A DNA stretch of 64,000 bases from a virus (lineage: Duplodnaviria > Heunggongvirae > Uroviricota > Caudoviricetes), in the IMG/VR virus record IMGVR_UViG_3300021387_001477. One strand, written 5' to 3'. This document shows positions 1,990 to 2,128 of the stretch, in pieces (the stretch's first letter is position 1; each line of letters starts with the position of its first letter). Below the pieces are notes generated by a model. It was not told where the DNA came from, ran no database searches, and was given only the letters and a program-made list of their open reading frames with translations. A program made the position numbers and the translations under genes.

Positions 1990-2128
1990 AGTTTTCTAGG
2001 TTGTGAGTTTAATAGTTTTTGTTGTTTTATAAAGGGAAGGGGAAGGAAAATTTAAAACTCCTTCCCTAACCCAATAAGATGAAGCAGCATCTATAAAAAG
2101 CACATTAAGCTGCTTGCGTTAGAAAACT
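1990..2128 (+). ncRNA. pistol self-cleaving ribozyme, circularly permuted
   Basis: P1 AGAUG/CAUCU 2077-2092 with loop AAGCAG; linker AUAAAAAG; P2 CACA 2101-2104; UUAAG; pseudoknot CUGCUU 2110-2115; GCG 2116-2118; P3 UUAGAAAACU 2119-2128 pairs with upstream AGUUUUCUAG 1990-1999, then GU 2000-2001 and UGUG 2002-2005 completing P2. Confidence 0.85.

Follow-up and report, generated by a model that had tools for sequence, protein, structure and literature searches.

The plus strand of this phage DNA very likely carries, at positions 1990–2128, a circularly permuted pistol self-cleaving ribozyme. The stretch analysed here (the window) covers 64,000 nucleotides of a metagenomic contig of 317,399 bp, the genome of a rumen jumbo phage of 317 kb. 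Within it, the element separates two small membrane-protein genes, in their coding orientation. Both flanking genes, as given in the list of open reading frames, are on the same strand as the ribozyme, and the element would therefore be transcribed in its active sense. The comparisons reported below support a natural rotated-order version of the known pistol class, retained by a clade of huge phages from gut and rumen and linked with a terminator-like hairpin. Its parts and the two flanking genes are the following.

1728–1904, plus strand: upstream gene, 58-aa small membrane-type protein (open reading frame list)
1953–1983, plus strand: terminator-like hairpin, 11-bp stem (1953–1963/1973–1983) with a 9-nt loop, U-run at 1984–1987
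1990–1999, plus strand: 3' strand of P3 (P3b), AGUUUUCUAG, 10 pairs with 2119–2128, first pair U2119–G1999
2000–2001, plus strand: GU junction, predicted cut between G2000 and U2001
2002–2005, plus strand: 3' strand of P2 (P2b), UGUG, four pairs with CACA at 2101–2104
2006–2076, plus strand: linker from P2b to P1, 71 nt, containing a purine-rich hairpin according to folding
2077–2092, plus strand: P1 hairpin, AGAUG (2077–2081) paired with CAUCU (2088–2092), 5 bp
2082–2087, plus strand: P1 loop, AAGCAG, 6 nt, 5' side of the pseudoknot
2082–2087 with 2110–2115, plus strand: pseudoknot, six of six pairs
2093–2100, plus strand: A-rich linker, AUAAAAAG, 8 nt, in agreement with the Rfam consensus
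2101–2104, plus strand: 5' strand of P2 (P2a), CACA
2105–2118, plus strand: catalytic strand, UUAAG (2105–2109), CUGCUU (2110–2115) and GCG (2116–2118)
2119–2128, plus strand: 5' strand of P3 (P3a), UUAGAAAACU
2150–2332, plus strand: downstream gene, 60-aa single-pass membrane protein (open reading frame list)

A pistol core and its predicted substrate strand upstream

All conserved pistol elements are present in 2077–2118, and the pistol core that the first-pass annotation had described element by element at 2077–2128 agrees with the sequence base for base. The P1 hairpin has the 6-nt loop that forms the 6-bp pseudoknot, the unpaired A-rich linker (AUAAAnAG) is found together with UUAAG and GCG, and a 4-bp P2 and P3 surround a strict two-nucleotide cleavage-site junction. 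We take G2116 to correspond to G40 of the env25 pistol, and A2108 and G2109 to its A32 and G33. The pistol order, i.e. P1, linker, P2, pseudoknot strand, P3 hairpin, GU and P2, is not followed, the strand that should come last being located upstream instead. With the Rfam Pistol model (RF02679) the core was found, but below threshold: 2077–2118 aligned at 18.8 bits (E 0.3), the gathering cut-off being 34.5. The alignment deletes the P3 region of the model, and the score is this low because the P3-GU-P2 strand is absent after the core. At the gathering score Rfam gave no match in the window, nor in the corresponding loci of the three related families described below (B, B' and C). Judged from its sequence, the element is thus a pistol by all features except the order of its parts and the Rfam score.

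The first-pass annotation had also pointed out that the usual downstream P3-GU-P2 strand is missing. None follows the core, and none was found anywhere in the 64 kb. The strand that it proposed instead, upstream of the core, is indeed located at 1990–2005, where a 10-bp P3 starting with a U-G pair is followed by GU and by UGUG complementary to CACA. The GU dinucleotide is placed exactly at the two-nucleotide junction between P3 and P2, which is the cleavage site in pistol ribozymes (PMC4604425). On both strands of the window, position 2000 is the sole GU+P2 site with at least five adjoining P3 pairs, and the exact 16-mer composed of P3b, GU and P2b occurs only once. As a control, 20 Mb of random sequence generated with a first-order Markov model of the local (dinucleotide) composition contained 3190 GU+P2 sites, two of which had 8 adjoining pairs and none at least 9. 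Rough extrapolation from these random counts puts the chance of finding 10 pairs less than a kilobase away from a pistol core in the order of 1e-5. P3 of the window is AU-rich, and the minimum free energy (MFE) fold adds four P3 pairs across a bulge, towards the stem of the terminator-like hairpin, between 1985–1988 and an A-run located just 3' of 2128. In the hairpin of the 71-nt linker, 2034–2036 and 2039–2047 pair with 2059–2067 and 2070–2072.

Conservation and covariation across lineages

Close relatives of the window phage come from samples of cattle, sheep and other guts. They are uninformative for covariation because they are 97–100% identical across the gap and show few differences. 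Their variation is limited to the loop of the linker hairpin, two 5' positions of the 71-nt linker, the loop of the terminator-like hairpin and one position of the A-rich linker that is also variable in standard pistols. To reach more distant loci, IMG/VR was scanned with a pistol-core pattern, and a script then looked for the P3-GU-P2 strand on both sides of each core. Standard-order pistols were recovered (22 distinct ones with an 8-nt linker), as well as a second set of cores that have this strand upstream only and that belong to three lineages. Family B consists of about 30 near-identical IMG/VR contigs, most of them of 200–401 kb. Two contigs represent family B', one of 113 kb from IMG/VR and one of 371 kb from GTDB, and family C comprises a complete 400.9-kb genome with terminal repeats and two metagenome contigs. 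The linker between P2b and P1 has 71 nt in the window versus about 120–165 nt in these three families. It always includes a stable hairpin with a purine-rich 5' arm (2034–2072 in the window, of the GGGAGGG type in the other lineages). The linkers of families B, B' and C fold back on themselves, the hairpin forming the tip of a long stem whose base is within about 13 nt of P1 (1–2 nt in family B) or next to P2.

To assess the helices, 16 sequences from the four lineages were aligned (alignment A2), the first 16 and last 52 columns being gap-free. Each of the 25 pairs of P1, P2, P3 and the pseudoknot is a standard pair in every sequence, and 12 of them show double-sided compensatory changes according to a script count. 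These are distributed over the long-range P3 (six of 10 pairs), the long-range P2 (two of four), P1 (one of five) and the pseudoknot (three of six). P2, for instance, reads CACA/UGUG, CAUA/UAUG or CGAA/UUCG depending on the lineage. When the 3' partners were slid by 1–3 columns as a control, only 30–41% of the cells paired and double changes were seen for 0–2 pairs. When this alignment was given to RNAalifold, which has no knowledge of pistols, the program recovered the pseudoknot helix and the long-range P3, with 10 of its 26 pairs changed on both sides. GU, UUAAG and GCG do not vary among the 16 permuted sequences, and the A-rich linker is constant except at position 6. This position also varies in the standard pistols, although these were retrieved with a pattern fixing the linker and cannot test its conservation. 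The first P3 pair is U-G in 19 of the 22 standard pistols. Between the window and family B, the 42-nt catalytic core has six differences as counted from the sequences. Four are accounted for by two pseudoknot pairs that changed in a compensatory way, a fifth lies in P2a and is matched by a compensatory change of its P2 partner in the upstream strand, and the last is the variable linker position.

The permuted loci are syntenic in the four lineages. Since synteny is retained while a flanking protein of 290–435 aa is only 23–30% identical between them, the comparison indicates that the rotated-order RNA is kept under selection over a deep divergence. The four lineages known all descend from one ancestral locus, and the number of independent substitution events is accordingly modest. 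The rotated order with the same helices and nucleotides, selected in more than one lineage, is what a circular permutation should display, and it is seen in four lineages at this one locus. The permuted topology that the first-pass annotation had suggested, with an open P3, the substrate strand upstream and a linker of about 70 nt containing a hairpin, is therefore supported by the same order and by compensatory changes in three further lineages; both P3 and P2 covary among these related phage contigs, as it had anticipated for a genuine element.

The collection scans relied on fixed core words and are not exhaustive. Beyond families B and B', gapped IMG/VR scans (TAGGTT with a pistol core 41–221 nt later) yielded standard-order pistols exclusively, in which TAGGTT occurs by chance. 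The second of these scans missed family C although its pattern matches L149, probably because the match crosses a storage boundary. Scans of metagenomes and GTDB with lineage-specific patterns made additions only to families C and B'. The GTDB member of family B' (L176) is contig CASEGV010000001.1, which has 370,971 bp and is part of a bin named 'uncultured Mycoplasmatota bacterium'. In this case, binning has probably assigned the genome of a huge phage to a bacterium.

The terminator-like hairpin, predicted cleavage and competing explanations

The region 1935–2001 folds with an MFE of -23.7 kcal/mol, versus a mean of -9.6 for shuffled sequences. The stem at 1953–1983 is followed by UUUUAU and, by its sequence, looks like an intrinsic terminator. 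A simple consensus terminator scan made no call because the loop exceeds 8 nt. An equivalent hairpin of 11–14 bp with a U-run is located directly 5' of P3b in all four families, and the G at the predicted cleavage site is found 15–17 nt after the base of the stem in every lineage, even though the length of P3 ranges between 10 and 13 pairs. The U-rich tract behind the hairpin is itself the substrate strand in families B, B' and C; in the window it leads into the substrate strand after a 6-nt spacer. The hairpin could stack on the open end of P3. In the MFE fold, the hairpin is enclosed by an outer 7-bp helix (1945–1951/1995–2001) that could occlude the GU site together with half of the P3 strand.

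If the likely ribozyme is active as predicted, transcription of the upstream operon past the hairpin at 1953–1983 would yield an RNA in which P3 (1990–1999/2119–2128) and P2 (2002–2005/2101–2104) form and the P1 loop makes the pseudoknot with 2110–2115. We infer that the cut would occur between G2000 and U2001 by the usual pistol chemistry, because the element corresponds to the active bimolecular enzyme and substrate pair brought together in one transcript. The upstream mRNA would then end 17 nt after the terminator-like hairpin with a 2',3'-cyclic phosphate, and the downstream mRNA would start with a 5'-OH and retain the whole folded ribozyme as its leader. Such a ribozyme may serve to split read-through transcripts into two messages, both with structured ends. 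Two points speak against activity: P3 is AU-rich and, should the hairpin with its U-run terminate efficiently, the whole ribozyme would be present in few transcripts. We also suggest, as a tentative extension, that hairpin and ribozyme might be a composite in which the U-rich tract after the hairpin supplies the substrate of the permuted pistol, transcripts escaping termination being cut at a fixed 15–17 nt behind the hairpin. If so, read-through RNA would gain the same protected 3' end as terminated RNA, the downstream message would be freed with a 5'-OH and with the ribozyme fold as a protective leader, and the permutation would have been selected for reversing which product keeps the ribozyme.

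Assemblies of rumen metatranscriptomes from cattle and sheep, produced in several studies (runs X1, X2, X3 and X5), contain the region 1400–2700. Contig depths over the upstream genes, the gap and the downstream genes are up to tenfold apart, which suggests that the phage is really transcribed in the rumen. In X2 the contigs break off at 1957 and start again at 2163, and in X5, from another study, they do so at 1952 and 2204, but contigs cannot show RNA ends. Likewise, the contig depth over 2020–2196 is lower than that of the flanks, a value that contigs cannot resolve as local depth.

Contigs from X1 and X3, two rumen metatranscriptome assemblies, span 1416/1432–2039 and thus bridge 2000/2001. 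Because they run across the site, these libraries contain uncut RNA, or DNA, with the site intact. This would fit a fold that is real and conserved but has lost cleavage, the element acting as a structured RNA only, either as a leader of the downstream mRNA or as a hairpin-stacked modulator of termination or RNA stability. The constant spacing of 15–17 nt to the hairpin would also suit such a role, as it suggests a structural coupling for which cutting is not needed. Nearest-neighbour folding of the window version points in the same direction, favouring an alternative in which the U-rich linker (2006–2030) pairs with the A-rich core (2079–2111) at -46.3 kcal/mol, versus about -40.7 when the active nested fold and the pseudoknot duplex are added together, roughly 5 kcal/mol apart. 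However, the four lineages have kept UUAAG, GCG, the A-rich linker, GU and the U-G first P3 pair while their helices drifted, and a structural role alone would require neither the GU junction nor conserved unpaired residues. Loss of cleavage is for this reason considered rather unlikely.

The same folds could mean that processing is conditional and not constitutive, the hairpin region (1945–1951 with 1995–2001) or the U-rich linker sequestering the substrate strand or the core; both the outer helix and the linker-core pairing appear in MFE folds. Yet family B has no equivalent complementarity to P3b, with only two 3-bp contacts outside the hairpin. Linker-core pairing, which we rejected as a conserved switch, is disrupted in the relative L043 by G2007A and a 1-nt insertion and is absent from families B, B' and C. 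A regulated switch therefore appears quite improbable. A chance resemblance, or a decayed standard pistol deprived of its 3' strand, would account for a Rfam score under the gathering cut-off, but can hardly be reconciled with an upstream strand that is statistically exceptional and with a whole arrangement that covaries across lineages. A permuted pistol that cleaves itself is the explanation we prefer.

Relation to known ribozymes and genomic setting

The permuted element shares with the standard pistol (RF02679; Weinberg et al. 2015; Harris et al. 2015, PMC4604425) P1, P2, P3, the 6-bp pseudoknot, the 8-nt A-rich linker, UUAAG and GCG, as well as the U-G first P3 pair, the two-nucleotide GU junction and an intergenic setting in phages. 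It differs by a P3 without closing loop, by a substrate strand 5' of the core and by the linker joining P2 to P1 (71 nt, or about 120–165 nt in the other lineages). Another difference is that the standard pistol stays on the upstream fragment, whereas the ribozyme of the window is predicted to remain on the 3' product. Bimolecular pistols from which the P3 loop had been deleted show near-complete cleavage with Mg2+, giving a 2',3'-cyclic phosphate and a 5'-OH (Harris et al. 2015, PMC4604425). The break in the P3 loop is the same as here, the substrate comprising the P3 3' strand, GU and the P2 3' strand, and the enzyme extending from P1 through the P3 5' strand. These were two laboratory RNAs, however, while the window has both strands in one natural transcript, substrate first.

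According to the papers that cite it (PMC10265488, PMC11494654), an engineered circularly permuted pistol was functional in cells as a riboswitch scaffold (Mustafina, Nomura, Rotrattanadumrong, Yokobayashi, ACS Synth Biol 2021). As far as it is described there, and leaving the break point aside, it is likewise an active permutation, but a synthetic one. Natural circular permutations have been reported for the hammerhead (types I–III) and twister (P1, P3, P5) ribozymes (PMC6765202; PMC10085705), and these two are the only naturally permuted classes given in the latter paper, of 2023. They obey the same principle, another helix being open and the product that keeps the ribozyme being changed, in different ribozyme classes. 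The first-pass annotation did not recognise the topology as a described natural class. This stands in so far as searches of the searchable literature found no natural permuted pistol and gave the synthetic one alone; the permutation as such had already been made in the laboratory. In Rfam, no family covers the permuted form. In size and intron load, families B and C are similar to the 360–402-kb gut 'Jug' phages described in 2026, for which group I introns but no self-cleaving ribozymes are reported (PMC12880540).

With a natural permuted pistol, a rotated order would prove to be tolerated by the pistol fold, and put to use, in nature as well, and the engineered permuted pistols would be validated by a natural scaffold. 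Because the Rfam covariance model for pistols misses permuted forms, ribozyme counts in huge phages are probably underestimates. A ribozyme placed on the downstream mRNA, combined with a cut at a fixed distance behind a hairpin, would be a testable handle on the function of intergenic ribozymes in phages.

The pseudoknot-containing hammerhead carries the hammerhead catalytic core (CUGAUGA ... GAAA), and reading the element as such a ribozyme was rejected, the window having no hammerhead core at this place and having the pistol-specific AUAAAAAG, UUAAG and GCG. Its secondary structure and connectivity are similar to those of the pistol (PMC11300833). Elsewhere in the window, a minus-strand type III hammerhead candidate at 18793–18843 gave no Rfam match in a search of 18700–18950 (gathering score; E up to 1).

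The locus is organised as two small membrane-type genes, the hairpin, the ribozyme, two further small membrane-type genes and the gene for the 290–435-aa protein. This conserved cluster, examined at 1401–3531 of the window and in the syntenic loci L135, L148 and L149, encodes four small single-pass membrane-type proteins of about 50–113 aa besides the larger one, and none of the proteins has a Pfam or PHROG match. That holds for the 58-aa product of the upstream gene (1728–1904); families B, B' and C encode a small protein of the same kind at this place. The 60-aa downstream protein has an identical copy on 24 public contigs. Its true start is probably ATG 2174 and not 2150, because ATTAACAA (2155–2162) is conserved before the start codon. 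In all four lineages this motif is found 11–24 nt before the start codon of the small gene downstream, L135, L148 and L149 having it downstream of the ribozyme as well. The possibility that ATTAACAA is a general promoter motif was rejected, as the window has 4 copies versus 8.7 expected.

A blastn search with 1400–2700 gave no match among phage sequences in GenBank. Related loci were also sought with two proteins of the window: the 320-aa protein found none, its nearest relatives being on contigs that end short of the ribozyme, and a ClpP-like protein led to one 44%-identical locus (L037), which is without a pistol.

Two observations concern the linkers. In family B (L133, L072, L152 and others), the A/G-rich spacer that follows P2b in the 5' half of the linker varies by 6- or 12-nt repeat units of GAAGTA/GAAATA among near-identical phages. 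A 42-codon open reading frame in this linker, starting at an ATG within the P2 strand, was dismissed as probably non-coding, as it has internal 1-nt indels and reads differently in family B'. In six relatives of the window phage (L042, L044–L047 and L049), the loop of the linker hairpin (2048–2058) is inverted, i.e. replaced by its reverse complement, with the GGGAAGG/CCUUCCC stem unchanged, which looks like a hairpin-mediated flip.
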